DNA of 64,000 nucleotides from an uncultured Pseudomonadota bacterium (GCA_949290785.1 CASETE010000004.1:12794-76793); one strand, 5' to 3'. Counted from the stretch's first letter, positions 322 to 38,841 are shown. Made by a program: numbers and translations. Notes: a model not told the origin generated them from the letters alone.

Positions 322-2814
322 TTACATAACGATATCTTCACATACAGGCTCCGACACTTCTGTCGTACATTCTGTATTCCGGCTGTTATGGAACCAACTG
401 CTACTACCTGTTGTCTTACAATTTTCTTTTGATATCGTTGTACATATATGGCAAGTTCTTGTATCACGACTAAATATCGCAGTTACTTCTTTAGTCATTC
501 CACCACCACTTAAACTTGAGCCTCCCAAATATCCGCTATTAGAAAACTTTACACCACCCGATTTTACGACTCCTGTTCCGCCTTTTGATAAATCTTCAAT
601 TGACAAACCGGCCCCAACATCATAACTGATAGAATAAGGTGGAGTTAGTGGCGTTGTCGCATCAGTACTTATACCTAAATCACTGCCACCATTTTCTGCA
701 ATCTTTTGACACATATACTGCGCCAAATCCACAGAAGCGTTTTTGGTTGCATCGGCAATCGCCGTATTTAACTTTGCGTTATAATTATCCTGAGCCTGAC
801 GCAATGCAGCAACCGCAATTTGCATTTTTACTTGATTCAATAGATTTGGAAAACGTCCCGTTGTTTTTGCACCGGATTTACCTGTTATTTGCGATAAATC
901 ACGACCGTTTACACAGAATTGAATTTCGGGGTCTTCTTCTATCATCGCAATTGTGCGATTGATTGTTCCTGCGATATTATTCAACTCTTCTTCTATGGAC
1001 GATATGATACCATCTGCATTTGCGACACCGGCGTTTTTCTCGCGGATTTTAGCAATGTATTCTTGGACGCCGATTTCACCCGGTCCCAATGTTACATTTC
1101 CTTCGGCGCCCGCATCAACTGTTTTACCGGAAGAATCGCCCATTTTTATGCTGCCGAAAGAAATCATACCAGTTACACGATATATATTGCCATCCTTTTG
1201 AGAACGTAATGAACCGGTTCCCAATGTATCATCGGCAGCAAACTTGTTACAATCAGTTGTGCTGCCACAAACCTCGGTCATCTTTTGATCAACTAAATTC
1301 TGACACTGTTCAATTGCAGCGTTATCAATATTCAAATACAACCCCATTAACATGCCATCCAAATCATCCATAGAGAAATTTGGATTATTTGCCTTGCAGA
1401 CGACCAAAGAATCTAATGGGCAAATGTCATGGATATAGTCATAGTCCATACCAATGCAATTTTCAAAGTTAGGACCGCAACGTGTATCCGCCGTAAAACA
1501 GTCTTTCACTTCTTGGGTACAGGCATCTACACGCATTGCTGCCAACTTATCTTCAACATATCCCCAAATAAGCGGTTCCATTCTTTCACAAGGGTCTATT
1601 TCAACCTTGCAAAAACTGCGCGCCATATCAGGACGCGATAAACAAGCGTCCATTGTTGCAATGCCCTTGCCTGCGATATCGTCTTTACACGCCTGTTGAA
1701 TACAATTAGAAATGTTGGTCAAACAAGACTGACGGAACTTTGATTCTGCCTGACTTTCGGCAAGCCTAATTGTTGGTGCAGCTTCGCGCAGGAAATTTGG
1801 CCAAACCATATCACGAACTGCAACGCAGTTATCTAACACATTTTCACAGATTACTCGTTTTGAATTTAAAACGTCCATAGTAGAGGCAGTTATGTCATAA
1901 GTTTCAACGCTTTGAACTTTTGTTCCGGCGGTACTTACGGTTTCATTATTTTGCATATTTTCTGACGCGACAATAGAAACACAATTCTCCCAATTTTCAC
2001 CGCATGCATCCGTTGTCAACATACACTTTTTAAACTCTACCATACATTGACCCAGGTCATATTTATTTGCTTCTTCAAAACTTTCTTGCAACGCCTGTCT
2101 GACTGCGGATTCCGCGCTTGCCAATTCGGCTTCGGCTTCGGCTTTCTTTTTAGTCAGCGTATTTTTGAACCCCAAACAATCCGAGGTTATTTGTCTGGAA
2201 TACAACTGTTCTAAGAAAGGTAAATCACCAGAACAAGATTCCGGTAACTGAGCGTTACATAAATCTTTGGCAGCTTTGTATAATGCGTTACCTGTTTTAT
2301 TTGCCAAACTGGTTATGTCGCTTTCTTCCGTTTCTTCATACGAGTTATCTTCAAACAAGGCTAATAAACTTGCACGTTCTTGTGATTTTTTTTCTTCCGC
2401 CGTTATTTCCGTATCGGAAATTATATTTCCATCTGCGTCATATTTGCGCTGACCCGTAAAAACAATATCTGCATTTGCGCCGGCTTTTACACGTTCAACT
2501 TCCACCGTCTTAATACGATTCGCCTCGTTTAACATATCTTGGATATCTGCGAAATCTTTTTCGTACTGAATGCTGTCGTCACTGCAAGTACAACTGCCAC
2601 CATTAGAATTATCTGTTATACAAAACTGATCCATACAACCAAAATAAGCATTATAACAGTCTTGATCATACAAACCGGTTGTTTCTGTACGAGTACGGAC
2701 GGTTGTTCCTTGTTGAATTGCAGATTGTTTCTTGGCAGTCGTTGCCGCATAAACTGCGCCAATAAACATACACATTACACATGATACAGGAACAATCGTT
2801 TTTCTTAGTTTCAT
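322..2814 (-). CDS. Large secreted cysteine-rich protein, family member 1 (about 830 aa), function unknown
   Basis: Long ORF 322..2850. The internal ATG at 2814 (MKLRKTIVPVSCVMCMFIGAVYA, signal peptide) is preceded by a GGGGGA RBS. It has dozens of Cys and the motifs DCYNAYFGCMDQFCITDNSNGGSCTCSD and NKYDLGQCMVEFKKCMLTTDACGENWENC, both shared with paralogs in this window. Confidence 0.85.
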   Translation of the reverse strand: MKLRKTIVPVSCVMCMFIGAVYAATTAKKQSAIQQGTTVRTRTETTGLYDQDCYNAYFGCMDQFCITDNSNGGSCTCSDDSIQYEKDFADIQDMLNEANRIKTVEVERVKAGANADIVFTGQRKYDADGNIISDTEITAEEKKSQERASLLALFEDNSYEETEESDITSLANKTGNALYKAAKDLCNAQLPESCSGDLPFLEQLYSRQITSDCLGFKNTLTKKKAEAEAELASAESAVRQALQESFEEANKYDLGQCMVEFKKCMLTTDACGENWENCVSIVASENMQNNETVSTAGTKVQSVETYDITASTMDVLNSKRVICENVLDNCVAVRDMVWPNFLREAAPTIRLAESQAESKFRQSCLTNISNCIQQACKDDIAGKGIATMDACLSRPDMARSFCKVEIDPCERMEPLIWGYVEDKLAAMRVDACTQEVKDCFTADTRCGPNFENCIGMDYDYIHDICPLDSLVVCKANNPNFSMDDLDGMLMGLYLNIDNAAIEQCQNLVDQKMTEVCGSTTDCNKFAADDTLGTGSLRSQKDGNIYRVTGMISFGSIKMGDSSGKTVDAGAEGNVTLGPGEIGVQEYIAKIREKNAGVANADGIISSIEEELNNIAGTINRTIAMIEEDPEIQFCVNGRDLSQITGKSGAKTTGRFPNLLNQVKMQIAVAALRQAQDNYNAKLNTAIADATKNASVDLAQYMCQKIAENGGSDLGISTDATTPLTPPYSISYDVGAGLSIEDLSKGGTGVVKSGGVKFSNSGYLGGSSLSGGGMTKEVTAIFSRDTRTCHICTTISKENCKTTGSSSWFHNSRNTECTTEVSEPVCEDIVM

Positions 2815-2831
2815 TTTTCCCCCACATACTT

Positions 2832-2874: not shown

Positions 2875-5037
2875 TTACATGTTAACGTCTTCGCAAGATT
2901 CAATTTCTTGACAGAATTCTTCCTCGCCCGCGGCGCTGCGACCTGCAAAGAAACCGCCAACTGCACCAACCACGCCACCGATTGCAGTTCCCCAACCCGG
3001 CGTAACCATTGTACCAGCCGCCGCACCGGCAGAAAGCCCCCCTGCAAGCCCCTTTAATCCTGCTGTGCCCTTGCTTTCACCGCCAACCTCGCAAACCTGT
3101 TGAACGCGACATACATGACAGTTTCGCAAATCCGGTTCAAAAGAAACGCTTCTTATGTAACTGTAATTACCGCTTTTAGAACTCGGCGTTTCAACTTTAT
3201 ATGTATTAAAGCAATTTCTTTCCGCCTCTTCTAAATCCTGCTGACGTGATAATTCAGCAATTTTTGTTTCCAGTTCACGCATAGCGCGATTTTCTGCATT
3301 TATCTGCGCAATCATTTTTGCGCTATTAAATACAGTACTTCCCAAACTTTTACGGTCGGCTGGTTTTTGACTGTCTTGACAAGCAGCCACTGTTATATCT
3401 TGTTCAAACTGTTTAAAGAACTCGTTTACAGTATTTTCCGTATTTGCACGAACCGTTTCACGCAACTCCGCCAACGCTTGTTCTGTATCTGGAACGGCAA
3501 CCAAAGATACGATTTTTGTATCGGTCGGCAAGCAAGACATATCCGTACCGCAAACAGCACCCAATTGTTCACCAAAATAATTCAAGCACCCCTGCAACAT
3601 CTGATAATCCATCTGCAATAACGCCGCCTGCACAATTATATCAAACTGCGTTTCATTTTTACATGATGGGAACATAGTCTGCGGACATAATTGTGCTATT
3701 TCATTTGCGCTTTTACCGACACATTCTGGCGCTGTGAAGTTTTCACCACACCTGTCGCGTAAACATTGGTCAATATCATTTTGACAAAACTGAGTACGCA
3801 AATATCCCAACTTATCATTTACAACTGATTTTATACCTGGAATCATGGCTTCACATTCATCAATAACCGGGCACACACCAGCCGCAACATTAACATCCGT
3901 TAAGCAAGCCGAATTTGTATCCGTAGAACAACTATCTTCCAAGCAAACTTGTATTCTTGCCAAGCATGTTCCACGCGCATTTTTATCTGCATACTTTGCG
4001 GCATCTGCCAATATACTTTTTGATTCCGCTTCCCAATCTTGTAAAACGTATTCACGTACCGCCATACATTGATCCAAGACATTTTCGCATGCATTTGCAC
4101 GTCTCCCCAGCAAGTCGGCGTCTAAGCAATTTTCAAAATTAACACCGCATCCGCCTTTATCAGCAATACACGCACGATACGCCAACAAACATTCACCACG
4201 GTTATACTTATTAGTCGTATCTAACATTTCAAGACGCGCTTGACGAACTGCGGCTTCGGCCGTACGTTTATTAGATTCCGCTATAGATTTCTGGTCATTT
4301 AAATAAGATTCAAACGCCTTACAATCTTGCACAATTTGACGCGCATACAACATTTCTTCCATTTCAGCAGTACTACCACAAGCCTCTAACTTACTGGCAC
4401 AAAATTCTGCAGCCATAGAATACAAACCGTCACCTATCAAATCATCGGCACCAAGGCTTGCCTCTGTTTCCGTACCGTCATTAATCCAATCAGCAAAACT
4501 TATTCCTGACGCCTTTGAACTTTTTTGCGCCTGCGCACTTTCACCAAATACTAATTTTGCCTGCGCACCAAGTTGCTCGCGCTCTACCCCTTCGGTATAT
4601 AATAAATCAGCCTCTTTTTGCAAATCTTGAATTTCTTGAATCAACGACTTTGACTGACGAATATTATCCGAGCAAGCACATCTACTACCTTCTGACTCAT
4701 CAAGCAAACAAAATTCATCCATACAAGCACGATATGCATCCCTACAACTCGTACTTATTGCCACACCAGAATCGTCTGTATTGTCGTCTGTTGTATTATC
4801 AGTGGCACCACCATTAGAACTTCCACCGCCGCTTGTACCACCGGGTTTAGTAGACATTGTCGGATTAGTCGGCCCAGAATTACTAGAACTGTTTATATTT
4901 GTCGCCATATTAGGCATTCTGGCCCCCGCCTGCGACATACGCGTTACACCAACCCTTACACTGGAATCACTGCGATCTGCACCAAAAGCTAATCCTGGCA
5001 CAGTCATAAGAAACGCTAAAAACAAACCTAATTTCAT
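2875..5037 (-). CDS. Large secreted cysteine-rich protein, family member 2 (720 aa) with C-terminal glycine-zipper segment
   Basis: Signal peptide MKLGLFLAFLMTVPGLAFGA. Motifs SCRDAYRACMDEFCLLDESEGSRCACSD and NKYNRGECLLAYRACIADKGGCGVNFENC. The C-terminus reads GLAGGLSAGAAAGTMVTPGWGTAIGGVVGAVGGFFAG followed by ...CEDVNM. Confidence 0.85.
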   Translation of the reverse strand: MKLGLFLAFLMTVPGLAFGADRSDSSVRVGVTRMSQAGARMPNMATNINSSSNSGPTNPTMSTKPGGTSGGGSSNGGATDNTTDDNTDDSGVAISTSCRDAYRACMDEFCLLDESEGSRCACSDNIRQSKSLIQEIQDLQKEADLLYTEGVEREQLGAQAKLVFGESAQAQKSSKASGISFADWINDGTETEASLGADDLIGDGLYSMAAEFCASKLEACGSTAEMEEMLYARQIVQDCKAFESYLNDQKSIAESNKRTAEAAVRQARLEMLDTTNKYNRGECLLAYRACIADKGGCGVNFENCLDADLLGRRANACENVLDQCMAVREYVLQDWEAESKSILADAAKYADKNARGTCLARIQVCLEDSCSTDTNSACLTDVNVAAGVCPVIDECEAMIPGIKSVVNDKLGYLRTQFCQNDIDQCLRDRCGENFTAPECVGKSANEIAQLCPQTMFPSCKNETQFDIIVQAALLQMDYQMLQGCLNYFGEQLGAVCGTDMSCLPTDTKIVSLVAVPDTEQALAELRETVRANTENTVNEFFKQFEQDITVAACQDSQKPADRKSLGSTVFNSAKMIAQINAENRAMRELETKIAELSRQQDLEEAERNCFNTYKVETPSSKSGNYSYIRSVSFEPDLRNCHVCRVQQVCEVGGESKGTAGLKGLAGGLSAGAAAGTMVTPGWGTAIGGVVGAVGGFFAGRSAAGEEEFCQEIESCEDVNM

Positions 5038-5508: not shown

Positions 5509-7962
5509 ATGAAAAAGAATTTACTTTTTATACTTATATGCCTTTTATGCATTGACAACGTCAATGCTGCTGTTCGCAGTGAAACAACCGTCAATCGTAA
5601 CGTTGGTGATAACTCCACAACAAATACGATAGTGGCAAGAACGGCAACAACCCCAACGACAAGAACACAAGCCTCTCAAAGTACGACACGTACATCTACT
5701 CTATCAACCGCACGTAACACAGAAAACACAGTTAACCGCAGTGCAATAACCAGAACAAATTTGCAACAGAACGTGTCGCGCAGTGCCGCCAACCCACGCA
5801 GCGGCTCGAACGCACTATCAACCGCCCGAAGCGCTGCAAACACATCCATAGTACGCAGCGCTACGAACGCCAGAAAAACTATTACGAACACAACCCAGGG
5901 CGTATCCAAGGCATCCGTTGCGCGCGCGGCAACACAATCAACGAATACTTTTGGCACTGGATATAACATTTGTCGTGACGCTTACTTTACATGTATGGAC
6001 CAGTTTTGTGCAACAGCAAATACCACCTATCGCAGATGTGTATGTTCATCGCGTCTAACAGACATACAAGACAAAGAGCGTGCGTTATCCCAAGCAGCCA
6101 ACCAACTGCAAGACTTCAAGGATTTAAATATAGAAGTTATACCGAAAACTGCTGCGGAAGTAAACGCAATGATATCCGCAAGCGAAGGTGAAAGTTCACT
6201 ATCTATGACCAAAAATACAACATCGGAAACATTGGCAGGCATCAGCGAAATATTAAGTTCTAACAAATCTAAATCTTTATCAACGCTTGGGACCCTAGAC
6301 ATAGCGGGCGATATAAATCAAATTTGGGCGACGACAGATTTAGCATCTGGTCAAGCAATATCTAATTTGACCGGCGAATCTTTGTACAACGCCGTTCATG
6401 CGCAATGTTCGGAATTAGTAAAAGCAAACTGTGGCGACAACACGACGTTACAAATGGTTGTATCGGCATATGGAATGTACATAGAAAACGATTGTACAAC
6501 CTTATTAAATTCTCTGGATTCACAGTTACAAAAAGCAAACAGCACGATACGTGAAACCGAACGTGAAATGAATCTAGCAAGGCTGGAAAATTATAATGCG
6601 CACAACTCTACTGCTATAAACGATTGCATCGCACAGGTACGCAAAGACATAACCGCCGATACCGCATGCGGTACGGATTATGTCCACTGCTTGGATATCA
6701 CAGGCAGGTATCTTAACCGTGACACTGGCGAGCCAATTTATTCAAGGGATTTTTATCAATTGCAAAATCAAACTTCTTTGGACGGCGACGTATTGACGAA
6801 TCCGACGAATCGGATGCTGGTAGCAGAATTAAACCGCAAACGTGCGTTTGCAGAAAACGGTCTGTCAACGTGCAGGGACATTGCTGACGAGGTATGGGAC
6901 GAATTCATGCGCCAAGCAATTACAGAAATATACCAAGGGCAACAGGCAAAAATCAGAGACGTCAAAAACGATTGCCTTGATACCGTTAACTTATGCTACG
7001 ACGAACAAAGCGAATCCTTGAAAGACTTTAGTAATATCAAAGAAGAATTATTATTAGGTTCCAGATTGGAATTATCAGAAGAATTGTGCCAAGAAAAATT
7101 ATACGCATGCAGTAATTTATATGGCGACCCCAACGGTGACGGCCTTAATTTGCTTATATCTGCGATGCACGACATAACAGACCAAAAGATTGCAAAAGAA
7201 TGTCGGACATTATTGGAAGAATATGCCCAAGATTTATGTACCGTCCCCAGCAACGACAGCTTACATTCTTATCCTTATGCCTGTCGCGTTTATGCACCTG
7301 GCGACCAAATTTACGCATCAAATTGGTATTGCAATCAATTACAATGGTCTACAAATACAGGTGGCACGACAGACGATTCAATTGGTCCCGCGCCCGCCAA
7401 TGGTTATAACTGTCCAACATTCAAACGGTACAAATCGTGTAATTTTGGATATTACCTTGCCACACTACAAACAGACGGGAATTGGATATACACATCAACG
7501 CCAATGTTTAATAACGCATGTATCAGATGTCCGTCTAACGCGCAATGCGCCGGTGGAACGACGGGCCCCGTATACGGCGATGAAAGCGGTGACGGTTCAG
7601 GTGCACCAGACTGCGGGACAGACTATGCGGGCAGTTTATATCAAAAGGTTGTAAAATACGCAACCCAGGTATGCATACGTCCATCTGAACTAGAAAACAT
7701 AATATCAGGGAAAACACAACTGCCCACAAATATATTAGAAGACGTAAATGTGGTAATGGATTCAATTCGTGTATCCATGTCACAGTCTTTATCGGCAGAA
7801 TGTGACAGGCTTGGTGGCACATGGGTAAACACACCATGGGTAGAGGGCTCAACCGGCGGTACAACGTTATTTAAAGCGTTCTATGATGAAACAGGCGCAA
7901 ATACTAAGTGGGGATATTGTGCGGACCCCAGCAGCATTTCAACATTAAATTCTGGTAACTAG
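5509..7962 (+). CDS. Large secreted cysteine-rich protein, family member 3 (817 aa)
   Basis: Signal peptide MKKNLLFILICLLCIDNVNA, then about 130 aa of R/S/A/T/N low complexity (RSAANPRS, RSAANTSIVRSATNARK), then ICRDAYFTCMDQFCATANTTYRRCVCSS and many further Cys. Confidence 0.85.
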   Translation: MKKNLLFILICLLCIDNVNAAVRSETTVNRNVGDNSTTNTIVARTATTPTTRTQASQSTTRTSTLSTARNTENTVNRSAITRTNLQQNVSRSAANPRSGSNALSTARSAANTSIVRSATNARKTITNTTQGVSKASVARAATQSTNTFGTGYNICRDAYFTCMDQFCATANTTYRRCVCSSRLTDIQDKERALSQAANQLQDFKDLNIEVIPKTAAEVNAMISASEGESSLSMTKNTTSETLAGISEILSSNKSKSLSTLGTLDIAGDINQIWATTDLASGQAISNLTGESLYNAVHAQCSELVKANCGDNTTLQMVVSAYGMYIENDCTTLLNSLDSQLQKANSTIRETEREMNLARLENYNAHNSTAINDCIAQVRKDITADTACGTDYVHCLDITGRYLNRDTGEPIYSRDFYQLQNQTSLDGDVLTNPTNRMLVAELNRKRAFAENGLSTCRDIADEVWDEFMRQAITEIYQGQQAKIRDVKNDCLDTVNLCYDEQSESLKDFSNIKEELLLGSRLELSEELCQEKLYACSNLYGDPNGDGLNLLISAMHDITDQKIAKECRTLLEEYAQDLCTVPSNDSLHSYPYACRVYAPGDQIYASNWYCNQLQWSTNTGGTTDDSIGPAPANGYNCPTFKRYKSCNFGYYLATLQTDGNWIYTSTPMFNNACIRCPSNAQCAGGTTGPVYGDESGDGSGAPDCGTDYAGSLYQKVVKYATQVCIRPSELENIISGKTQLPTNILEDVNVVMDSIRVSMSQSLSAECDRLGGTWVNTPWVEGSTGGTTLFKAFYDETGANTKWGYCADPSSISTLNSGN

Positions 7963-8044: not shown

Positions 8045-8749
8045 ATGAGGAAAATTTTTACAGTTTCTTTTATAAGTTTACTTATTGCAAGCCCCGCCGT
8101 TTCCGCAACGCCGTGGTGGCAACAACCGACCGTATGTCGTCTTGACCCGACAAATTGTTATACCAGTATGGGCATCGGGTACGATAGTGAATTGTGGGAT
8201 ACTAACGGCGGTTGTTGGGGTATGAAATTAATCTGTCCCGAAGCATTGATAAGCACATCGGAAAGTCAACCCATACCTATGGGCAAATCAGACATCGCAA
8301 AAAGTAAAAATATAAAACAAGATTTTGATACGAATAAACTAAACGGCGATTGTTTCGGCGTTCGCAAGACTATTTCTGACGGCGCAATGGCGTCCGTTAA
8401 CGGTCAATACGTAAAGGTTTGGTGTAACGGCGTTTTGAATAACCCAGATGAATTCTTACCAAACGGTGAAATAACATTCGGTGAACAACCCAGTTGTTCT
8501 GAATTGGCGGACTATGGTTATGTCGCCGTTGTAGATAATAATTGCTATGGGAAATATTATGACCCTTCAGAATACCGTATTGAATGTGACAGCGATGATG
8601 TATTACCGTCTCGTTTGGTGATATTAAACGGCGCGGATTATTCTACTACATCGGGAAAATTCCCTGCCGACGTATCTGCTGCGAACAAAATATTTGACGC
8701 AATGGAAAACGTATCTGAAAATCAACGTTCAAAATACTATAAAAACTAG
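8045..8749 (+). CDS. Secreted Cys-containing hypothetical protein (234 aa)
   Basis: Signal peptide MRKIFTVSFISLLIASPAVSA. Same strand as, and 82 bp after, the preceding Cys-rich gene. No recognisable domain. Confidence 0.7.
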   Translation: MRKIFTVSFISLLIASPAVSATPWWQQPTVCRLDPTNCYTSMGIGYDSELWDTNGGCWGMKLICPEALISTSESQPIPMGKSDIAKSKNIKQDFDTNKLNGDCFGVRKTISDGAMASVNGQYVKVWCNGVLNNPDEFLPNGEITFGEQPSCSELADYGYVAVVDNNCYGKYYDPSEYRIECDSDDVLPSRLVILNGADYSTTSGKFPADVSAANKIFDAMENVSENQRSKYYKN

Positions 8750-11975: not shown

Positions 11976-11986
11976 TTTAGTTATTT

Positions 11987-27282: not shown

Positions 27283-28149
27283 ATGGTAAAAAAAATCGTA
27301 TTTTTAATATCCAGCATATGCTTATGCCCTGGTTTATCGCTTGCCGCGACTTGTTCGCAAGCAAATTTAACGCGTTGCCTTGATTCTGTATGTGCGATAA
27401 ACATATCATCTAATCCTGCGGCTCGTTGCCAATATTGTGGTACGTCCAGTGCCGGCAGTCCAGACACAAAGAACGCTATGCGCAGTTTATCGCTTGGGCA
27501 ATCTGCGAAATATACGCTTAGTGAAAAAGAATTGAAAAATGCCCCCACCGACCCGGGTAAACGTTATATATGGGCAACAGAACAATGTATAAAAAAGATA
27601 GAAGGTTGTACAACCGAAGACGTATCCGACACATATGATAAATTAATAGAACAATCTTGCAAAGCAGCCGGCATAAACGCCCAAATGGCTTCATTACGTG
27701 CCGACGCGAACAAGACGGTCAGCAAAACAACCTGCTCTACGGATATAACGGCGTGCATGGTTGACAGCAAACGTTGCGGGCCCGACTATCGTTCTTGTGA
27801 AAGCGATTCGGAATTTAATAATTTCTTTGCTTATTGTTCTGTAGAGGCCAAGGGTTGCGACGAATACATATCAGATATTCGTTCCGATTTAATGTCTCTT
27901 CGGGACAACACCATCAAAAACGCGGACCTGGCCATAGACAACATTGTGTCTGCATATCAAAATGCACGTACTAAAAAAGTATCAGACGCAAAAAGTGCCT
28001 GTGCCAACAATACCGGACGTGACAGCTGCATTAAGATAGTATGCGAACGCAACATGCCAAACAAATGTGGCGAAGGTTATGAATCAGAAAAAAGCGCAGC
28101 AACACAATTCTGTAAATTTTATGAATTGGCTTGTGATACATTAAAATAA
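27283..28149 (+). CDS. Secreted cysteine-rich protein (288 aa), short family member, first gene of a 3-gene operon
   Basis: Signal peptide MVKKIVFLISSICLCPGLSLA, then CSQANLTRCLDSVCAINISSNPAARCQYCG and many further Cys pairs. Confidence 0.8.
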   Translation: MVKKIVFLISSICLCPGLSLAATCSQANLTRCLDSVCAINISSNPAARCQYCGTSSAGSPDTKNAMRSLSLGQSAKYTLSEKELKNAPTDPGKRYIWATEQCIKKIEGCTTEDVSDTYDKLIEQSCKAAGINAQMASLRADANKTVSKTTCSTDITACMVDSKRCGPDYRSCESDSEFNNFFAYCSVEAKGCDEYISDIRSDLMSLRDNTIKNADLAIDNIVSAYQNARTKKVSDAKSACANNTGRDSCIKIVCERNMPNKCGEGYESEKSAATQFCKFYELACDTLK

Positions 28150-29734: not shown

Positions 29735-31875
29735 AAAAGATATTAAATATAATTTTTGCGCTATGTATATCGTTCCCCGCCTTCGCGGATTCTCTAAATG
29801 ATGCCGATCAAATGATTACCATTTCCGGGACAGTAACAGATGAACAACAGAAACCTGCTGAATATGTAAACATAGTCGCTCTTAATGCACAAAAAACAGC
29901 AATTCAACAAGGGGTCAGTACTTTGGGTACCAGTACAGATGCTAGCGGACATTTTACATTAGCACTTACACCAGATGCAAAATATTTACAAATTTCTTAT
30001 ATTGGGTATACAACGCAAACGATACCAATTGATGTTAGCAACACAACAAACTATAATATACGACTTAGTCCCAACGAAACAACACTAAATACTGGCATTA
30101 CCATAAATGCAACAAATGATTGTACAGAGGAAGAACTACAAAAACAAGATCCAAAGGCAAAAACTGGAAAATTAAAAACTGAAAATAATATAATTTATTG
30201 TTATATAGATACATGTATTGATAATTTTATTCCAAATGACGACCATACTAAATGTGTCGCAAGTACCCGCAAATGCACAACAGATGAACTGCAAAACATT
30301 CCTCATGCAACTGAAGGCGAAGTAACTGGTGATGGTGCCTGTCATGCAACAAAGTGTGAATATGGATATAATCCCCAAGATGGTGTGTGTGTCGGCACAT
30401 CCGGAGATTGTAATCCAATGCCACAAAACGCCACAAAAGCACATTCAGAATATAATGCAACAACTGACAGCCACACTTGCATTGTTGATGAATGCGAAGA
30501 AGGCTTTACAAGAACGCCTGACAAACTGGCATGCGCAAAAAAAACTCTATCCAAAGAAGACGCAGAAAAGCAAATTGCTGAACTGCAGCAAAACGCCGAC
30601 GCCATGAAAGAAAAAGAACAATCCACAGCAAACAAATTATTAGGGGCCGCGTCTATAGGTGCAATGGGCATCGGCGGAATGCAGGCTTTATCCGCACTAT
30701 CGGAACAAAGCGCAGACGCCGCCGCAGAACAAGATATGACCGCATACTTGGCAACTTTCCGTTGCGATTACGGTCAAGGACAAGATATTCATGGTGGCGA
30801 TACCGACATAATACTGCCCGGCGGTAACGAATTAATATCTTTGTATACTGAATACATTCAACTTGCCTCGGACTTGAAAACAAGAAAAGAATCATTGGGC
30901 ATGTCACCCGGCATAGAATCAGAAATGCTGTTGGATAAAGCAGACACAGGTTTATATGACGACGTAGGAACTGGTATAACCACAGGTACGTTTGCGTCTT
31001 TGGCGCGTGCATTATCTGACCCGAACAGTGCCGATGCTGCTTTATGGGCGCAACAACAGGCAGACACAGCCAGCAAGTTAAAAACCGGTTTAATTACCGC
31101 AGGTGCCGGCGCGGTCATAGGCGTTGCGGGAAATATTGCGATAAATAAAAACGCACCAAAAGAAAACTCGGAACAAATACTTGCCAGTTACGAGTCATTA
31201 AAGAAACTGGAATATGAAATCAGCCAACTGCCAGACCAAACGGCAGGCGCAACCTGCCCAGCAGGCACAACGGGGACTGTTCCAAATTGCAAACCCACAA
31301 ACACGAGAATTGAGTATAATTCAAACACCAATCAAACAGAAGTAGCATCGAACAACGATGACACACCATCACAAAATAATGAAGCAAACCCAACTGAACT
31401 AGAAAAGATAACCACTCTTACAAGCGTAGATAGTATCATATCAGCCATTGCAAATACTGACGCAGAAAATAAAAACGATGAAAATATCGTTTCTTTATCA
31501 GCACGCAATTTGTTTAAGTTAAACGAATATACGTTAGTACCGACATCAAAAACAATAATTGCAACATTCGCAACTCGAATATTAAGCACCAATAAGGACA
31601 ACCCAACATATTGTCTGATTGTTACTGGCAATACTGATAAAACAGGAAACGACCGTATAAATCAGCCATTATCAGAAAAACGTGCAAAAGCCGTTACATC
31701 CCAACTTAGCTTATTCGGAATTCCAGAAGCCAACATACTATCCAAGGGGGCAGGCTCGCAAAACTGTACAGATGCTTTTCGTAAGGAAAAAAATTGCAAC
31801 GGCAATAATTGCGAAGCGTGCAGAAATGTAACAATAGAATACAGACCTTCACCATGTACGCCTTGGACGTTTTAA
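29731..31875 (+). CDS. Multidomain envelope protein: carboxypeptidase-regulatory-like N-domain, three Cys-repeat modules, glycine-zipper segments, C-terminal OmpA-like peptidoglycan-binding domain
   Basis: ATGA start/stop overlap with the upstream gene. ISGTVTDEQQKPAEYVNIVAL...GHFTLAL...ISYIGYTTQTIPI is CarboxypepD_reg-like. The C-terminus F..NEYTL...LIVTGNTDKTGNDRINQPLSEKRAKAVTSQL is the OmpA/MotB C-terminal signature. Confidence 0.8.
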   Translation: MKKILNIIFALCISFPAFADSLNDADQMITISGTVTDEQQKPAEYVNIVALNAQKTAIQQGVSTLGTSTDASGHFTLALTPDAKYLQISYIGYTTQTIPIDVSNTTNYNIRLSPNETTLNTGITINATNDCTEEELQKQDPKAKTGKLKTENNIIYCYIDTCIDNFIPNDDHTKCVASTRKCTTDELQNIPHATEGEVTGDGACHATKCEYGYNPQDGVCVGTSGDCNPMPQNATKAHSEYNATTDSHTCIVDECEEGFTRTPDKLACAKKTLSKEDAEKQIAELQQNADAMKEKEQSTANKLLGAASIGAMGIGGMQALSALSEQSADAAAEQDMTAYLATFRCDYGQGQDIHGGDTDIILPGGNELISLYTEYIQLASDLKTRKESLGMSPGIESEMLLDKADTGLYDDVGTGITTGTFASLARALSDPNSADAALWAQQQADTASKLKTGLITAGAGAVIGVAGNIAINKNAPKENSEQILASYESLKKLEYEISQLPDQTAGATCPAGTTGTVPNCKPTNTRIEYNSNTNQTEVASNNDDTPSQNNEANPTELEKITTLTSVDSIISAIANTDAENKNDENIVSLSARNLFKLNEYTLVPTSKTIIATFATRILSTNKDNPTYCLIVTGNTDKTGNDRINQPLSEKRAKAVTSQLSLFGIPEANILSKGAGSQNCTDAFRKEKNCNGNNCEACRNVTIEYRPSPCTPWTF

Positions 31876-32486: not shown

Positions 32487-34577
32487 TTACTCGCATGCAC
32501 CGTATGATTTTGCCACCGGATAGTTTTCTGTGCATACACTGCCTGCTACTGCGCACGCCGAAGATACCAACGTAGACGTAACTGCACCGGCTGGCTTGTA
32601 ATTAATTTGTGCGCTTTTGCATTGATTCAAATCCGTCAAGGTACCGCAAGTACGACGCCAAGACTCGCAATCTGTTGCCGTTCCTGTTGGTAAAATGTTA
32701 TCTGGCAAACGCAAATTCCACTTTACATAAAAGTCTTTTAACGAACCTATGGAATAAGATTTACCCAATCCAACCTGTGCCAAACCGTCACCAACCCGAC
32801 AGTTAATATTACTGCGTTCTACAAAGGCGGTAATTGCGGTTGCCAATCCACCTGCCCCGGCACCGATACCTGCACCAATGGCGATACTTTGTGCCATATT
32901 AGACTTTTCACCGTTTTGGATTAAGTCTACCAGATTATCGGTATAAATCTCTGCCAAGGCCTTCATATCAGGTTCCAACTGTTCTGGTGTTTTGCATTTT
33001 TGCTCGTCACCTTCACAAAATATCCCAGTACCCGATTTACGTGCCTGATTTATCGCCTTGAATAAACAAGCGGAATCTTTTGCGAGCAACTTATTAACAT
33101 CATCAGAATTAAGCGCTGCCATCAGTTTTTTTTGTATATCGTCTTCCAAGTCTTCAACCTCAACATTTTCTAATTCTACATCCCCTTGTTGAGAAGCATT
33201 TTGCTTCACATTTTGGCAAACTTCTTCGTCTTCTTCTTCCTCACAAACTTCTACAACAGCGTTAAATTTATACACCAATGTTTCAGAGGTTACGCTTGTA
33301 CTACATCTGGCCAATTCTGCCTGTAACTGACTATAAGTATCATACAACGTAACTATTTCTTCGCATTGCGCCTGGGTTATAACTTTATCATTTGCCCCTA
33401 TTGGCGATGACATATATTGACTAATCCGACCAAAATTGCCGTTTGAACGCAATTCTGTCGTCATCATTTCACGATGCTTTTCATTACTACAATCCAACAA
33501 ACGTGAACCATGACCAACAGCCGCGCCGATACCACCACCAACCAAAGTACCACCACCAATTCCAACGACCGCAACCGTGGCAGTATCATTTAATAATGAA
33601 AACCCAAATAAATCTTTGTTACAGGTAAACGTATCACCCGCCAGTTTCCATACCTCTGCCGGTTCATCGTCACCCAAGGCACCAAACAACCAATTATTCG
33701 TAATATGTTCGTCCTTGTTATATGCGGCAACACGTATCCAGCATTCTGCAGTAACCGGATCCCAACGAGAATAATGCCCGCGTTGTCCGTCGACACCATT
33801 ACTGCTGTTTACATTAACGCCTTGGGGTTGCGTTTTAATCAGCGCATTACCGTTTTGGTTGTTATAAGCGCCGACAGAAACGTTGTATTCCGCCGTCACA
33901 GAACCAGAATTAGAAACCGCATTAAACGAAGAACCATAAGTATTTCTGTCTAACAACAAACAAGTATTTTCAGCCTGATTTGGCGTTAAGCCCGTTTTAC
34001 GCAATACGAAATTATAGTATTCCGGTTGAACGATACGCGCATTAAAATCTAACCATACATCAGCCGAACTTCTGTATATATTTCTGCAATCCCTGCGAAC
34101 TTCACTTATACATCTTTCAACCTGTACTGTACACAGCCCCATACCGTTAACAATGGAATTACGTAATTCTTCGCTGAACAAGTCGTTTAATCCGTTTGGC
34201 AAAGCCCCATTATTAACGCAAGCCAAAACATCGTTCATACAATTATCAACAGTATATTCAGAATTTCTTACGCCGCCATCTGGGCAATCTGTTTCTGGTT
34301 TTGGTTCTGGATCAATATCACCGCCACCGCCATTGCCGTCATCACCGCCATCACCGCTTGGTAAATTAGGGGACAAGTTCCCGGTTGCAGAACCCGGTAA
34401 CGTCGGCATAGTCGGCATACGTTGCGTTGACGTATTCTGCATTTCACCAGAACGATTCAAAGAACGTACATTATACGCAGCCCGCCCCGCAGAATCAGCC
34501 GCATAAACGGTACCAATAAACACAAACAATCCTAATCCTGCAACAGAAGCACTGACAACGTTACGCATATTTGGCAT
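32487..34577 (-). CDS. Secreted cysteine-rich protein (696 aa), divergent family member with two glycine-zipper segments
   Basis: Signal peptide, QRMPTMPT motif, a Gly/Asp-rich linker and many Cys. The glycine-zipper segments are VAVVGIGGGTLVGGGIGAAVGHG and IAIGAGIGAGAGGLATAITAFV. There is an acidic EEEEDEE block. Confidence 0.8.
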   Translation of the reverse strand: MPNMRNVVSASVAGLGLFVFIGTVYAADSAGRAAYNVRSLNRSGEMQNTSTQRMPTMPTLPGSATGNLSPNLPSGDGGDDGNGGGGDIDPEPKPETDCPDGGVRNSEYTVDNCMNDVLACVNNGALPNGLNDLFSEELRNSIVNGMGLCTVQVERCISEVRRDCRNIYRSSADVWLDFNARIVQPEYYNFVLRKTGLTPNQAENTCLLLDRNTYGSSFNAVSNSGSVTAEYNVSVGAYNNQNGNALIKTQPQGVNVNSSNGVDGQRGHYSRWDPVTAECWIRVAAYNKDEHITNNWLFGALGDDEPAEVWKLAGDTFTCNKDLFGFSLLNDTATVAVVGIGGGTLVGGGIGAAVGHGSRLLDCSNEKHREMMTTELRSNGNFGRISQYMSSPIGANDKVITQAQCEEIVTLYDTYSQLQAELARCSTSVTSETLVYKFNAVVEVCEEEEDEEVCQNVKQNASQQGDVELENVEVEDLEDDIQKKLMAALNSDDVNKLLAKDSACLFKAINQARKSGTGIFCEGDEQKCKTPEQLEPDMKALAEIYTDNLVDLIQNGEKSNMAQSIAIGAGIGAGAGGLATAITAFVERSNINCRVGDGLAQVGLGKSYSIGSLKDFYVKWNLRLPDNILPTGTATDCESWRRTCGTLTDLNQCKSAQINYKPAGAVTSTLVSSACAVAGSVCTENYPVAKSYGACE

Positions 34578-34712: not shown

Positions 34713-35750
34713 ATGAGCAAGATTTTTAACCTTATCGCCACGCATAAAAATGCTATCATATGGTCAGCATGCTATGGCGCTGTGATATGGGGAATATTGC
34801 TTTGGCTGTTTAATTTCGACATATTTTCATCAAACGCTTGGGCACAGTTGCCCCAGGCTAACCTAAATAACTTTCCGGGCTTTGTGTTTGTTATATTATT
34901 ACTCGCAGCAATACCTTTGTACATTGCAACAACGACGCTAATAATCAGAACCAAGAAGCCTTTATTTACAATACCGATACCAAAATTTCTGTATCCGGTA
35001 CCAGAAAAAGAAGAAAGTACCGAATCGAAAAAAGAAACCAAAGACAACCCCGAAACAAATCAACCAATCGCAGAGACATTACCTGCGGGCATTCCTGCCG
35101 AGTTACGTACGCCGTTTTTACGCGCCCGCGAACACATTCGCGCCGGCATAACACCCCAAGCGATTAATAAGTACAACGAAATCGCATCTGCAGCGAATAC
35201 GGCTGACTTATCCTCACCCGCGCAGACAACAAGCAACGACAAGCAACCCGACAACAGCACAATTACCGACACAGACAACCCGCTGCCCATTCCTGAGAAT
35301 TTTGACTTTGACGCCCCCGACATAGACGATTCGGAATACGCCGAAGAATCCATGCCGCATTTTTCGCCTGTATTTACAGACATAGACTTTGATGAAAAAG
35401 ACGGGGACAGGGACGATGACACGACGACAGAGTCCCAAGAAACAGTGATAAAATTCTTGCAATCGCGTAAAGAGAGTTTTGAGCAAAAACAAGACATAAT
35501 AATCAGCGACAATTTTGTCATAGGCATTCATTCAGACCCTGATTTTTGGATAGCAGACGAAGAATTATGGTTTGCGTCTGGCAAGCAGAAAGAATCCCCT
35601 ATAAAGAAGATACAAGAAATAGCATCATCCAAGCAAATACAAGGTGTATTATATCTTGCTGAAACGAACATAATGGACCTAGATACCAAGATATCAGAAT
35701 GGTCAGAATCAGGAATAAAAGTGATAACGTCTATATCTGAATTGGAATAA
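34713..35750 (+). CDS. Membrane protein with acidic disordered linker (hypothetical, 345 aa)
   Basis: It has two or three N-terminal hydrophobic helices, a D/E/T-rich middle region and a C-terminal globular part. No recognisable domain. Confidence 0.6.
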   Translation: MSKIFNLIATHKNAIIWSACYGAVIWGILLWLFNFDIFSSNAWAQLPQANLNNFPGFVFVILLLAAIPLYIATTTLIIRTKKPLFTIPIPKFLYPVPEKEESTESKKETKDNPETNQPIAETLPAGIPAELRTPFLRAREHIRAGITPQAINKYNEIASAANTADLSSPAQTTSNDKQPDNSTITDTDNPLPIPENFDFDAPDIDDSEYAEESMPHFSPVFTDIDFDEKDGDRDDDTTTESQETVIKFLQSRKESFEQKQDIIISDNFVIGIHSDPDFWIADEELWFASGKQKESPIKKIQEIASSKQIQGVLYLAETNIMDLDTKISEWSESGIKVITSISELE

Positions 35751-35796: not shown

Positions 35797-38700
35797 TTAA
35801 TTATTCCATGCTGGTGCTGTAGTTATAGCTTCAGTAGTATTTATTGTATCAATTTTCATAGAATCAAGTCTAGATTCATAATTTGAAGTAGAAGTGCCTG
35901 AATTACTTACAGGACTAGCAGAAGAAGATGAACCCCTATTACCAATATTGCTGATATCGCCTGTACTAATACCAAGCGAAAATCCGCCCCCATTTTTCTC
36001 TGTTACATTACTGACCGAAGATTGATCATTATAATAAGACTGTAAATTACTACGTGTAGTTAAACCAAACGACTGTTGCGACCCAACCGCAAAACTTACC
36101 AACTGCTCGGTAATAACCGGTTCAGCATAAGTACTACAGAAATTCCCCTGATATGTATCCGAGGCTTTGGATTGAGAATATCCGGCACTTCCACCAAAAG
36201 GCCCAACCTGAGCCCCCGCCTCACCACTATAACTTGCAGATTCATAATTATATATCGCTTCAAACCCTGTACATGGATATGTAGTTGTGGTTATCCTGCA
36301 TGTGCTGGTACCTGGCTCATATATACCGGTAATTGTTTGTTTGCCAATCATACGACCACTACTAAATAACCCCTTAGATTCCACTATTACCTTTTCTACC
36401 CCTTTACTTTCCAACAATACATTTAACATTTCATCATCTGTTACACCGTTTATAATAACAGACCAATCATTTGATTCTTTAATTCCACTGTTTTTATTAG
36501 CCAATCTTGTTGAAGCATATTCTTCACCTTGCACCAAAGCATTGCAATATATCTGATTTTTATATTCATCTGCTGTACTGATTGCCTGTGCAAACAAATT
36601 TGCGTATTGTGCATCATAATTTGACTTTGCCGAATCCAAAACGGCATTAGCAATCACATTCGTATAAGAATCCAACAAATGCGGGAAACGCGCAGTTGTT
36701 CTATCTACTACGTTACGCGATGTAACACCGCGAATCTGACTCATATCACGACCGCTAACACACATTGTTATTTCTGGATCTGATGCCAATATATCTATCC
36801 GTCTTTGAATTTCATTCTGAATACCCGTCAAAGCGGTACGGATTCTTTCCTTTGATTCATCGTTAGCATCGGCAATTTGCGACATGTATTTATTAATATC
36901 CAAATTATACTGACCATTTGAATTTTGACCCAAAGTTAAATTGCTATATAAAATAACACCGTCTATAACATAATCACCACTGGAATTTTTATAACTTACC
37001 AAACTGTTTTTTCCTATATTAGCATCCTGAGAAAAAATATCACAACTTGTCAAATCTCCGCACAAGGCCAGCATTTTTTCATTAACTATATTTTGACACT
37101 GTTCTAGCATGGCATTATCTATACCCAAATAAATACCTTGTAACATATAATCAATATCAACCATACTTGTTAATTCACCATTTTGTTGACATGCGACAAG
37201 TTTTTCTAAAGGACACATTTGACGTATTGACGCCAAATCCAATCCGATACATTGTGTATAATCCTTTCCGCATCTATCATCTGCTTGCAGACATTCTTTA
37301 ACAGCAGTCGTACAAGAATCCACTCTCATAGAAGCCAATCTAGCGACAACGAAATCCCAAATCTGAGATTCTTCAGCCTTTGCGACAGAAGAAGCATCAA
37401 TACCGCAAGCATTTAAAGGGACCTTGCACAAATTCAACATAGTCTCTGGTCTTGTTAAACACATGTCATAAGAACCATCAGGGTCATTAGGATCAATGTT
37501 ATCTTTACAAGCCTTTTGGAAGCAATCAGAAATAGATCCGATACAATTTTGTCTTGCATCGTTTTCAGCGATTAATTCTGCGGATTTTATTTGAGGTGCA
37601 ATGTCTTTCAAGAAAGTGTCCCAAACTTTATCGGCGACAGCGACGCAAGACTTCGTAATGCCTTCGCATAAAGGTTTTTTTGCCAGCAAAGTATCATAAG
37701 TAGACGCGTAGATTTCTATACCTGTAACAGTACCTTGAATAGTATAAGTAGCAGGTTTTCTGTTAGCTCTTTGACTGGCATTAGTATTATCAAAAGCGGC
37801 AACAGATGCACATTTTGAAAAATCCTCGCCGCAACCAGCGGTAGTAATCATACAATTTTTAAACTCTACGGCACATTGTCCTAAATCATACTTATTAGCA
37901 GATTGATATTGCTCTAACGCCGCACTCCTTAATGCTTGTTCCGCGGCATATAATTTTTGCGCGCTTGAATTTTTTTGCTGTTTCAGACTATTTTCATATG
38001 CACTGCAATCCGACTTTATTTGTTGTGAATACATCAACTGTAACATTGATAATTCTGATTGACACTCTGGCACTTGTGCGACGCAAATATCATTAGCGGC
38101 ACGATACAACGCATCACCCTCTTTGCCTTCTATAGGATTGACTGACGCATTTTCACCGAATATATCTTCTTCATCTTCTTCAAAACTCATATTCCAAAGC
38201 GACAAATCCAAAGTCCGCTTTTGTTCTTCTTGACCTGCTTTTAATATAGAATCTGCAACAGCATTTGCGTTTGCGATTGCCGCATCGGCGGCATCGCCCA
38301 TTTCTATTCTTTCAACGCCGACCGTGGCCATTTGATAACTTTGCTGGTCCAGTTTTTCTATTTCTGCCAACACCGTATCCAATTCAGCGTTTTTATCACT
38401 GCAAATACAGCGACCACCGTTATCGTTATCCAACATACAGAAAGAATCCATGCACCCCATGTATTTCTGACGACAAGCCTCACTAACGATTACATTTGCC
38501 GTTGCCGAGGCGACTTTGGTTCCCGTAGAAATTACCTTTTGCGTTGTTCCAGCACGCGCAACAACGCCCGTTGTCGCGGGGGCGGTTGACGCCGGCGTCG
38601 CGCTTCTTGAAACGGTTGTTCTGCCCGTGGTTGCCGACCTGGCCGGTGCTGTTGTTCTGGTACTGGTCGCACTGCGCGCAGTTGTTGCACTGCGTGCAGA

Positions 38701-38841
38701 AACAGCATTTGTCCGCGAAGATGTCGCAGCAGTTGTCCCTTCTTCTGCAGCGGCCTGACCGCGCCGTTGCTGTGGTACCGCAGCATTTGCAGACGTAATA
38801 AGCAAACCCAAAAACGCAAAAAATACAACGAAACGTTTCAT
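35797..38841 (-). CDS. Large secreted cysteine-rich protein, family member (1014 aa), closest in layout to 322..2814
   Basis: Signal peptide MKRFVVFFAFLGLLITSANA and RSAT-type low complexity (ARSATTARSATSTRTTAPARSATTGRTTVSRSATPAS). Motifs ACRQKYMGCMDSFCMLDNDNGGRCICSD and NKYDLGQCAVEFKNCMITTAGCGEDFSKC. Collinear blocks are shared with member 1 (DPEI..CV.GRD.SQI). Confidence 0.85.
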   Translation of the reverse strand: MKRFVVFFAFLGLLITSANAAVPQQRRGQAAAEEGTTAATSSRTNAVSARSATTARSATSTRTTAPARSATTGRTTVSRSATPASTAPATTGVVARAGTTQKVISTGTKVASATANVIVSEACRQKYMGCMDSFCMLDNDNGGRCICSDKNAELDTVLAEIEKLDQQSYQMATVGVERIEMGDAADAAIANANAVADSILKAGQEEQKRTLDLSLWNMSFEEDEEDIFGENASVNPIEGKEGDALYRAANDICVAQVPECQSELSMLQLMYSQQIKSDCSAYENSLKQQKNSSAQKLYAAEQALRSAALEQYQSANKYDLGQCAVEFKNCMITTAGCGEDFSKCASVAAFDNTNASQRANRKPATYTIQGTVTGIEIYASTYDTLLAKKPLCEGITKSCVAVADKVWDTFLKDIAPQIKSAELIAENDARQNCIGSISDCFQKACKDNIDPNDPDGSYDMCLTRPETMLNLCKVPLNACGIDASSVAKAEESQIWDFVVARLASMRVDSCTTAVKECLQADDRCGKDYTQCIGLDLASIRQMCPLEKLVACQQNGELTSMVDIDYMLQGIYLGIDNAMLEQCQNIVNEKMLALCGDLTSCDIFSQDANIGKNSLVSYKNSSGDYVIDGVILYSNLTLGQNSNGQYNLDINKYMSQIADANDESKERIRTALTGIQNEIQRRIDILASDPEITMCVSGRDMSQIRGVTSRNVVDRTTARFPHLLDSYTNVIANAVLDSAKSNYDAQYANLFAQAISTADEYKNQIYCNALVQGEEYASTRLANKNSGIKESNDWSVIINGVTDDEMLNVLLESKGVEKVIVESKGLFSSGRMIGKQTITGIYEPGTSTCRITTTTYPCTGFEAIYNYESASYSGEAGAQVGPFGGSAGYSQSKASDTYQGNFCSTYAEPVITEQLVSFAVGSQQSFGLTTRSNLQSYYNDQSSVSNVTEKNGGGFSLGISTGDISNIGNRGSSSSASPVSNSGTSTSNYESRLDSMKIDTINTTEAITTAPAWNN

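Follow-up and report, generated by a model that had tools for sequence, protein, structure and literature searches.

The stretch of DNA analysed here (64,000 nucleotides of an uncultured Pseudomonadota bacterium, GCA_949290785.1 CASETE010000004.1:12794-76793; hereafter the window, numbered from its first letter) encodes, between positions 322 and 38,841, nine exported cysteine-rich proteins which, judged from their sequences, are one four-member helical family, two relatives sharing a Cys module with it and three unrelated Cys-rich proteins. The source of the window is a relative of Candidatus Enterousia, of the order Rs-D84 in the gut Alphaproteobacteria. Our leading interpretation, tentative and falling a little short of probable, is that the set would build a lineage-specific, disulfide-stapled helical scaffold in the envelope of Rs-D84/Enterousia-type gut Alphaproteobacteria.

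All of the open reading frames (ORFs) that an earlier note had listed for this region were found where it had placed them, and a ninth Cys-rich protein that it had overlooked was added (8045-8749, 3.8% Cys; Table 1). The Cys content of 322-2814, 2875-5037 and 5509-7962 is 4.6, 5.0 and 3.8%, respectively, and that of 27283-28149, 28157-29734, 29731-31875, 32487-34577 and 35797-38841 is 7.6, 3.2, 3.1, 3.4 and 3.4% (overall range 3.1–7.6%), compared with 0–1.3% for the remaining genes of the region. Among the ORFs of the region Cys richness is restricted to proteins with signal peptides, and all nine Cys-rich proteins have a predicted Sec-type signal peptide (K/R residues, a hydrophobic run and an AxA-like site, read from sequence); the other exported proteins nearby are Cys-poor (autotransporters 0.1–0.2%, 22616-26293 0.3%, SIMPL 0.4%, CBAH 0.3%). 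The nine Cys-rich genes, the two autotransporters and 22616-26293 together occupy 27.6 of the 38.5 kb (72%), so that the earlier estimate that about half of the region encodes exported proteins was too low.

BLASTP connected only 322-2814, 35797-38841, 2875-5037 and 5509-7962 (35797-38841 and 322-2814 are 37% identical), with 28157-29734 marginal. A profile hidden Markov model (HMM) trained on the top 150 representatives of the helical family recovered the same four window ORFs (E 4e-98 to 3e-191) and nothing else convincing. When ortholog alignments were compared HMM against HMM (hhalign), the four were joined at probabilities of 98–100%. The hallmark of the family is an N-terminal C-x6-C-x4-C-x9-12-C-x-C motif, present in exactly these four proteins, together with a core of ~480 residues containing ~30 conserved Cys; an exhaustive profile search retrieved, at E <= 1e-3, 856 sequence clusters (50% identity), and 428 of these had E <= 1e-30. 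The proteins 27283-28149 and 28157-29734 matched the C-terminal half of the family core (hhalign probability 88% and 86%, over 56–85 columns), and the whole-protein family HMM gave E values of 0.14 and 0.57 for them. The common element is a helix-loop-helix module, C-x6-C-x4/6-CG-x5/8-C, which is repeated inside the family (hhalign probability 93%); translated in all six frames, the whole window contains nine copies of it, exclusively in 322-2814, 2875-5037, 35797-38841, 27283-28149 and 28157-29734. For 32487-34577, 8045-8749 and 29731-31875, no core homology to the helical family was detected outside the signal peptide or leader (hhalign probability <= 1.5%), and in the latter two the likeness to other members ends at the signal peptide. 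Of the at least seven paralogs claimed previously, four are therefore firm, two share only the Cys module and one, 32487-34577, shares only an N-terminal leader (hhalign probability 80%) and must be withdrawn.

That otherwise low-complexity leader, which follows the signal peptide, contains an R-M-P-x-M-x-T motif common to 2875-5037 (4900-4920, residues 40–46), 28157-29734 (28340-28360, residues 62–68) and 32487-34577 (34401-34421, residues 53–59; hhalign probability 39–87%), and might direct sorting, processing or docking; beyond it the three proteins are unrelated or at most distant relatives. Both 322-2814 and 2875-5037, which belong to one operon, end in C-E-D-[IV]-x-M-COOH (C-terminal codons 322-342 and 2875-2895); this ending, which may be a recognition signal, is invariant in essentially all orthologs of the former and 78/80 orthologs of the latter, and reads CEDIPM in the 322-2814 ortholog of a distant relative, L088 (L001 to L088 are working labels of the related genome loci compared with the window). 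Low-complexity stretches rich in T/S/N/Q/R occur in 28157-29734 (residues ~435–525), 35797-38841 (~770–1014) and 5509-7962 (~21–150), and their lengths vary strongly among orthologs; members of the 28157-29734 family are 430 to 723 amino acids (aa) long around an invariant Cys core.

Searches of the Cys-rich proteins against Pfam (also applied to 31 orthologs of four Cys-rich groups), NCBIfam and PHROGs returned only CarboxypepD_reg, OmpA and CPL1-like matches, all in 29731-31875, and the helical family profile found nothing among the PDB sequences at E <= 1. The AlphaFold2 model of 322-2814, made from a 100-sequence alignment (mean predicted local distance difference test score [pLDDT] 80.5, with 428 residues >= 90), consists of long helices (residues 51–527) and a C-terminus rich in beta structure (755–829), with a mixed region between them, while the core of the 28157-29734 model (residues 160–350, pLDDT 82–96) is helical with a small sheet; in both, the Cys sit on helices or on short connecting loops. 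Foldseek found nothing at E <= 1e-3 for the 322-2814 model in the PDB and BFVD, or for the 28157-29734 model in the PDB. Ten representatives in the protein collection are unnamed or called ‘hypothetical protein’. The expectation from the earlier note that the Cys-rich members belong to no characterised toxin, S-layer or other family is upheld by these searches (Pfam, NCBIfam, PHROGs, PDB sequences and Foldseek of the two models), and what has been found is best described as an uncharacterised, lineage-specific protein superfamily with a fold absent from the PDB.

The Cys residues themselves are almost fully conserved. Those of the mature proteins kept in >= 90% of orthologs amount to 36/36 in 322-2814, 36/36 in 2875-5037, 25/29 in 5509-7962, 9/9 in 8045-8749, 20/20 in 27283-28149, 15/15 in 28157-29734, 22/24 in 32487-34577 and 30/34 in 35797-38841, with a mean identity at non-Cys positions of 0.51–0.72 in the same alignments; the figure for 29731-31875 is only 2/21 because its repeat number varies. 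Across 100 divergent members of the helical family, 20 Cys are invariant and a further 10 nearly so. Cys counts shift in twos between orthologs, with five of the proteins even and four odd: 36 in 78/79 orthologs of 322-2814 and in 78/78 of 2875-5037; 20 in 13/13 of 27283-28149; 9 in 71/71 of 8045-8749; 15, 17, 19 and so on up to 27 in 28157-29734 (odd in 112/113); 20–28 in 32487-34577 (even in 9/9); 34 or 38 in 35797-38841 (even in 5/5); and 21–49 in 29731-31875 (odd in 7/8). The odd-Cys proteins are encoded as two adjacent co-directional pairs, 5509-7962 with 8045-8749 and 28157-29734 with 29731-31875, an arrangement with an estimated chance of ~5/126, and this adjacency suggests one putative intermolecular disulfide per pair. 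The dominant Cys spacing is i to i+7 on helices, and CxxC and His-containing motifs are rare. A gene beside recO encodes a membrane-anchored, DsbA-like thioredoxin-fold protein carrying a CPYC motif (Pfam DSBA 6e-20, Thioredoxin_4 4e-21); locus L001, near-identical to the window, has this gene at 17054-17881, ~5 kb before window position 1, and it also adjoins the cluster in L087 (1-550). The near-complete conservation of Cys, the change of their counts in twos and the nearby DsbA-like gene argue strongly, if indirectly, that the proteins are disulfide-bonded, as the earlier note had supposed.

Gene order is maintained across ~88 related loci. Orthologs of 322-2814 are present in 80/80 retrieved genome loci (identities 41–100%); 2875-5037 adjoins 322-2814 in 78/80 (both exceptions start at the gene), 5509-7962 likewise lies beside 322-2814 in 76/80, and 8045-8749 is present wherever the flank extends, except in L078 and L079 (ortholog in 71 loci, always downstream of 5509-7962). 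This four-gene order is kept in ~80 species-level genomes, in which the genes are strictly single-copy, and the same arrangement recurs in L088 (54% guanine plus cytosine [GC]; L088:3033-13706) at 43–51% identity, where the ortholog of 5509-7962 is enlarged to 1143 aa with 70 Cys. The second block (22616-26293, a small membrane protein, 27283-28149, 28157-29734, the OmpA-domain protein, 32487-34577, a membrane protein and 35797-38841) is collinear in L081–L086, and the operon 27283 > 28157 > 29731 is kept in L082–L087. The two Cys-rich clusters are 20 kb apart in the window; in L087 (9318-21096) BOF, an MscS-type channel and then the orthologs of 322-2814 and 2875-5037 come after the OmpA operon, the left half of the second block, up to the OmpA-domain protein, adjoining the first block so that the two are contiguous. 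Identity to L082/L083 is 55–71% for the Cys-rich proteins, 66–77% for the PpiD-like neighbour and 36–67% for the autotransporters. Because gene order and a housekeeping-like divergence are conserved, the set appears to be core-genome envelope equipment and not an island. A phage or other mobile origin was rejected: PHROG matches were confined to Gly-rich and ankyrin (Ank) segments, the order is conserved beside ribosomal and housekeeping genes, and there are no mobile-element signatures.

A scan of all window ORFs for uncharged Gly-rich hydrophobic segments recovered only 2875-5037, 26422-27210, 28157-29734 and 32487-34577 (twice), with looser Gly-rich segments in 29731-31875 and 22616-26293. 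The segment of 2875-5037 aligned with Gly-zipper_Omp below the Pfam cut-off (E 4.9e-4, profile positions 2–41 of 46), and that of 28157-29734 is invariant across 100 homologs. The protein at 29731-31875 proved, as first described, to combine Cys repeats with an OmpA domain (PF00691, 48.5 bits against a cut-off of 27.2, present in 8/8 orthologs) and also carries CarboxypepD_reg; its repeats are CPL1-like/cEGF-like (7/8 orthologs match, best E 3.8e-9), and there are many partial NCBIfam OmpA-type matches, none reaching an equivalog cut-off. A metagenome scan with this protein returned one locus only. Its OmpA-type domain, carried by the operon partner of 27283-28149 and 28157-29734, is a putative link to peptidoglycan. 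Peptidoglycan is present, as had been read from mltG and the OmpA domains, mltG at 62170-63228 implying that a wall is made. The loci inspected contained no lipobox, no beta-barrel and no two-partner secretion or type II secretion system (T2SS) gene. Because of the glycine-zipper segments, the OmpA-domain operon partner and the lack of surface-export machinery nearby, we favour a periplasmic or outer-membrane-associated position over a free surface coat.

Table 1. Protein-coding features of the region, by position in the window
Position	Strand	Description	Further features
322..2814	-	Helical family paralog 1, 830 aa, 36 mature Cys, family HMM E 1e-176	Two copies of the C-x6-C-x6-CG-x5-C module; beta-rich C-terminus; end motif CEDIVM
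2875..5037	-	Helical family paralog 2, 720 aa, 36 mature Cys, family HMM E 1e-108	RMPNMAT leader; C-terminal glycine-zipper hairpin; end motif CEDVNM; upstream of 322-2814 on the same strand, 60-nt gap
5509..7962	+	Helical family paralog 3, 817 aa, 29 mature Cys, family HMM E 4e-98	Long T/S/R-rich leader; divergent C-terminal third
8045..8749	+	Small exported 9-Cys protein, 234 aa	No Pfam match; outside the helical family
8830..11874	-	Pmp-repeat classical (type Va) autotransporter, 1014 aa, 2 Cys	
11987..15283	-	Pmp-repeat classical (type Va) autotransporter, 1098 aa, 1 Cys	
22616..26293	-	Conserved exported protein, 1225 aa, not Cys-rich	Orthologs 46–61% identical, same position
26422..27210	-	Single-pass membrane protein, 262 aa, poorly conserved	Gly-rich transmembrane segment, then 7 Cys; position held in relatives by a gene of 178–249 aa (~32% identity to the L082 gene)
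27283..28149	+	Exported, 288 aa, 20 mature Cys	One C-x6-C-x6-CG-x5-C module; first gene of the operon 27283 > 28157 > 29731 (8-nt gap, then 4-nt overlap)
28157..29734	+	Exported, 525 aa, 15 mature Cys	RMPTMAT leader; two Cys modules; invariant glycine-zipper-like segment (390–410); variable T/N/Q-rich tail; 876 homologs
29731..31875	+	Exported, 714 aa; CarboxypepD_reg 1.8e-13, OmpA 1.2e-12 (Pfam)	Order: CarboxypepD_reg, CPL1-like/EGF-like Cys repeats, coiled region with Gly-rich segments, OmpA-type domain
32487..34577	-	Exported, 696 aa, 24 Cys	RMPTMPT leader; two glycine-zipper-like segments; no Pfam match
34713..35750	+	Conserved membrane protein, 345 aa, 1 Cys	Between two Cys-rich genes; no Pfam match; counterpart at the same position in L081–L086, 32–46% identity (L081–L083)
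35797..38841	-	Helical family paralog 4, 1014 aa, 34 mature Cys, family HMM E 2.6e-191	Two Cys modules; variable low-complexity C-terminal tail

At the 322-2814 gene, a TTG start at 2850 would add 12 codons (2815-2850), and the orthologs back the ATG at 2814; a 203-aa ORF antisense to it (14-625, plus strand) has no Pfam match and is probably spurious.

In the proposed scaffold, the nine proteins would be exported via Sec, as their signal peptides predict, and a DsbA-type enzyme, whose gene is present and whose activity is presumed, would oxidise them in the periplasm. Some 110 pairs of conserved Cys would then staple the long alpha-helices and the C-x6-C-x4/6-CG-x5/8-C modules into rigid, protease-resistant rods, to be held at the outer membrane and peptidoglycan by the glycine-zipper-like segments and the co-transcribed OmpA-domain protein; more speculatively, a single intermolecular disulfide per odd-Cys pair may tie the scaffold to the wall. 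Several points weigh against this interpretation. The parity figures rest on our own calls of signal-peptide cleavage, and in 5509-7962 the count is odd in 61/73 orthologs (84%), with 12 apparently genuine even exceptions, and is also even in L088, which weakens a strict heterodimer of this protein with 8045-8749. The Gly-zipper_Omp score of 2875-5037 (20.4 bits) lies below the Pfam cut-off of 25, and none of the other Gly-rich segments matched a Gly-zipper profile. The five unrelated protein types may not function as one system. Lastly, the re-oxidation of DsbA is unexplained, since Rs-D84 bacteria are reported to be without respiratory chains (PMC12306168), and no DsbB or VKOR was seen in the loci inspected (loci, as opposed to whole genomes).

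If the scaffold interpretation is true, it would represent a second, independent disulfide-cross-linked Gram-negative envelope, and its proteins would be surface or envelope markers for the enrichment, imaging and cultivation of the lineage. A bolder form, which we regard as rather doubtful, is a new envelope skeleton in which novel-fold, disulfide-stapled rods would be tied covalently, by single intermolecular disulfides, to the OmpA-domain protein and the glycine-zipper anchors. Such a skeleton would be analogous in function to the chlamydial Cys-rich complex and independently evolved, and it would call for an unrecognised way of oxidising thiols in the periplasm of an anaerobe that does not respire.

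Chief among the rival explanations, though in our view rather unlikely, is a surface coat or an apparatus for contact. The Cys-rich proteins, displayed on the cell surface, and the Pmp autotransporters would together attach to a partner organism or host mucus, and the disulfides would guard against gut proteases, as in the variant-specific surface proteins (VSPs) of Giardia. It is consistent with reports that Rs-D84 bacteria are inferred to be partner-dependent and to have many unexplained membrane proteins (PMC12306168), with CPL1/EGF-like and ankyrin repeats, which are typical of eukaryote-facing proteins, and with the variable low-complexity tails of 28157-29734, 35797-38841 and 5509-7962. 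An autotransporter adhesin barrel also lies directly beside the first block in 33/57 loci with enough flank. However, the machinery that a surface location would call for (lipobox, beta-barrel, two-partner secretion or T2SS gene) was absent from the inspected loci, an OmpA-type domain binds peptidoglycan, that is, on the periplasmic side, and between the same genome pairs the Cys-rich proteins are far more conserved than the autotransporters (60–80% vs 36–67% identity). The link between the Cys-rich proteins and the autotransporters suggested in the earlier note is therefore weak, given this incomplete adjacency and the much faster evolution of the autotransporters, and it is proposed that the latter are optional neighbours, separate and faster-evolving adhesins, and not obligatory partners of the set.

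The two Pmp-repeat autotransporters were themselves correctly recognised, with C-terminal beta-domains that match all 255 positions of the PF03797 profile (E 8.4e-34 and 1.5e-32), Chlam_PMP repeats of 28.7 bits (8830-11874) and 37.7 bits (11987-15283; cut-off 20.6) and signal-peptide-like N-termini; they are paralogs with 41% identity (BLASTP). A bidirectional terminator-like hairpin with a perfect 16-bp stem lies between the two genes (11943-11978, AAAATAAAAATCCCCC...GGGGGATTTTTATTTT) and a similar one follows 8830-11874 (8786-8815), which suggests that each autotransporter is its own transcription unit.

The protein at 22616-26293, previously called a subtilase-like autotransporter, did not bear out either half of that name, Pfam and PDB-profile searches giving only ankyrin. 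It consists, in order, of a signal peptide, ankyrin repeats (residues ~28–91), an invariant Gly/Ala-rich hydrophobic segment (106–138, GGLFSGLS...LAAAGAAVVVGGLFLLTD) and a large region without a Pfam match. The ankyrin repeats were confirmed by Ank_4 (E 2.4e-5, above cut-off) and by matches to DARPins (E 9e-24, residues 26–91), and a 12-sequence profile of the protein matched only ankyrin proteins among the PDB sequences; bacterial proteins seldom carry such repeats after a Sec signal. No Peptidase_S8 (subtilase) match was found in three segments of the protein (E <= 10), and 1/16 orthologs gave one at E 1.3. In an hhalign comparison with subtilisin BPN' (probability 0.9%), 26 residues were aligned with Glu opposite the catalytic Ser221; here ‘ELAVASAAGA’ stands opposite ‘SMASPHVAGA’, which is probably what the earlier reader saw, and the likeness of GYGLINLERA to GKGLINVQAA goes no further than a lead at the level of a motif. 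As for the autotransporter label, neither the last 365 aa nor any of 16 orthologs matched PF03797 at E <= 10, and comparison with the autotransporter barrels of the window and its relatives gave an hhalign probability of 0.2%; both results apply to barrels of that kind only.

A decidedly unlikely alternative is that there is no functional system, and that unrelated exported proteins are co-located by chance in a compact part of the core genome near a ribosomal-protein operon, Cys richness being general to the large exported proteins of the lineage. The set does comprise at least five unrelated sequence types, interspersed with housekeeping genes (tpiA, grpE, a ppiD-like gene, CBAH and DUF1015), its clusters are separated in the window, though contiguous in L087, and adjacency of the autotransporters varies. 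Nevertheless, the other exported proteins of the window are Cys-poor (0.1–0.4%), unrelated members share the leader motif, Gly-rich segments, the CED[IV]xM ending and tight operon coupling, and the pairing of the odd-Cys genes would seldom arise by chance. Still less likely, in our estimation, is that the proteins are secreted and reach a partner cell or host as effectors or toxins; the predicted parasitic or partner-dependent lifestyle, the novel folds and the ankyrin-repeat protein in the cluster would suit this, but the vicinity encodes no secretion system other than Sec, each gene is present in single copy with its order conserved across ~80 species and no mobile-element signatures, and features for anchoring to membrane and wall are present. 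Least likely of all is that the conserved Cys, instead of forming disulfides, serve as ligands for metals or in redox chemistry (periplasmic metal storage, thiol buffering, Fe-S), which would fit their invariance and an anaerobe without the respiratory chain needed by DsbB, but not the pairwise change of Cys numbers, the dominance of i to i+7 helix spacings over CxxC and His motifs, the DsbA-like gene, or the Sec export of unfolded chains, which is unusual for cofactor-loaded proteins (general knowledge of Sec and Tat).

Bacteria of the Enterousia/Rs-D84 type are common in the guts of humans, livestock and poultry and have genomes of ~0.9 Mb that lack most biosynthesis; to our knowledge, neither Enterousia nor any other Rs-D84 bacterium has been cultured. 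The closest homologs of 322-2814 are in metagenome-assembled genomes (MAGs) labelled Candidatus Enterousia, ‘uncultured Alphaproteobacteria’ or ‘uncultured Rickettsiales’, from the guts of humans, chicken, rabbit, sheep, deer, yak and buffalo, and one related record is a 958,618-bp chromosome labelled circular. Enterousia has been placed in the uncultured order Rs-D84, with genomes of 0.75–1.0 Mb and metabolic reconstructions without the tricarboxylic acid (TCA) cycle, respiratory chains or most biosynthesis (PMC12306168). A literature search found no paper connecting Rs-D84 or Enterousia with Cys-rich proteins. About 3% of a tiny genome is kept for the nine Cys-rich exported proteins, which carry ~224 conserved Cys; that a reduced genome retains these proteins suggests that they are central to survival or attachment, and the making of ~110 disulfides without a respiratory chain would be a biochemical puzzle.

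The window has a GC content of ~40%, and the ribosomal protein gene rplQ directly follows the region of interest (~39.9 kb). Within the region, 16791-17900 encodes an exported protein of the choloylglycine-hydrolase (CBAH) family with a Cys directly after the predicted signal-peptide cleavage site (between SADA and CTG), as is typical of Ntn-hydrolases such as bile-salt hydrolase or penicillin V acylase; it is plausibly an adaptation to the gut. Two ORFs near mltG, 59616-60392 and 61327-61911, one without a Pfam match and the other weakly FadL/TodX-like (E 1.5e-4, below cut-off), may encode further envelope proteins.

Of the known systems, the chlamydial outer-membrane complex (OmcA/OmcB/MOMP with Pmps) is similar in having Sec-exported Cys-rich envelope proteins, in belonging to a small-genome, host- or partner-dependent Gram-negative bacterium and in the presence of Pmp-repeat autotransporters, and rigidity through disulfide cross-links is postulated for both. 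As the earlier note had observed, there is no Omc resemblance (no Omc Pfam family at E <= 0.1 for the Cys-rich proteins and no PDB sequence match); moreover, the window proteins are long alpha-helical rods in the models, the autotransporters are not consistently adjacent, and in contrast to the chlamydial case the window has peptidoglycan machinery (mltG, OmpA domains). The Hcp proteins of Helicobacter are Sel1-like repeat proteins with disulfide-bridged helix pairs, and the window proteins resemble them as exported alpha-helical proteins in which regularly spaced Cys pairs would staple adjacent helices, and also in being a lineage-specific family of several paralogs whose host bacterium is gut-associated. 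They differ in lacking Sel1 (PF08238, E <= 0.1) and a 36-residue repeat, in being 3–5 times larger and in their own module, C-x6-C-x4/6-CG-x5/8-C, and they gave no PDB or Foldseek match to the HcpB/HcpC structures. Membership of the chlamydial Omc or Helicobacter Hcp proteins is excluded by these negative sequence and structure tests.

The Giardia VSPs and the EGF/furin Cys-repeat coats share with the window set a high Cys content, a gut-dwelling organism and, in the 29731-31875 family, CPL1-like/cEGF repeats; in the window, however, such repeats are found in one of the nine proteins, the pattern is not dominated by CXXC, and the genes are single-copy and conserved instead of a variable multigene repertoire. 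The uncharged, G/A-rich hydrophobic hairpins of 2875-5037, 28157-29734 and 32487-34577 are reminiscent of glycine-zipper anchors (Gly-zipper_Omp, Rick_17kDa_Anti, SlyB/Pcp), although they have no lipobox and are attached to large Cys-rich domains absent from the known members. Finally, 29731-31875 ends, like the OmpA/Pal proteins, in a bona fide OmpA-like domain, but its overall architecture, in which CarboxypepD_reg, CPL1/EGF-like repeats and Gly-rich segments precede that domain, is unusual among them.

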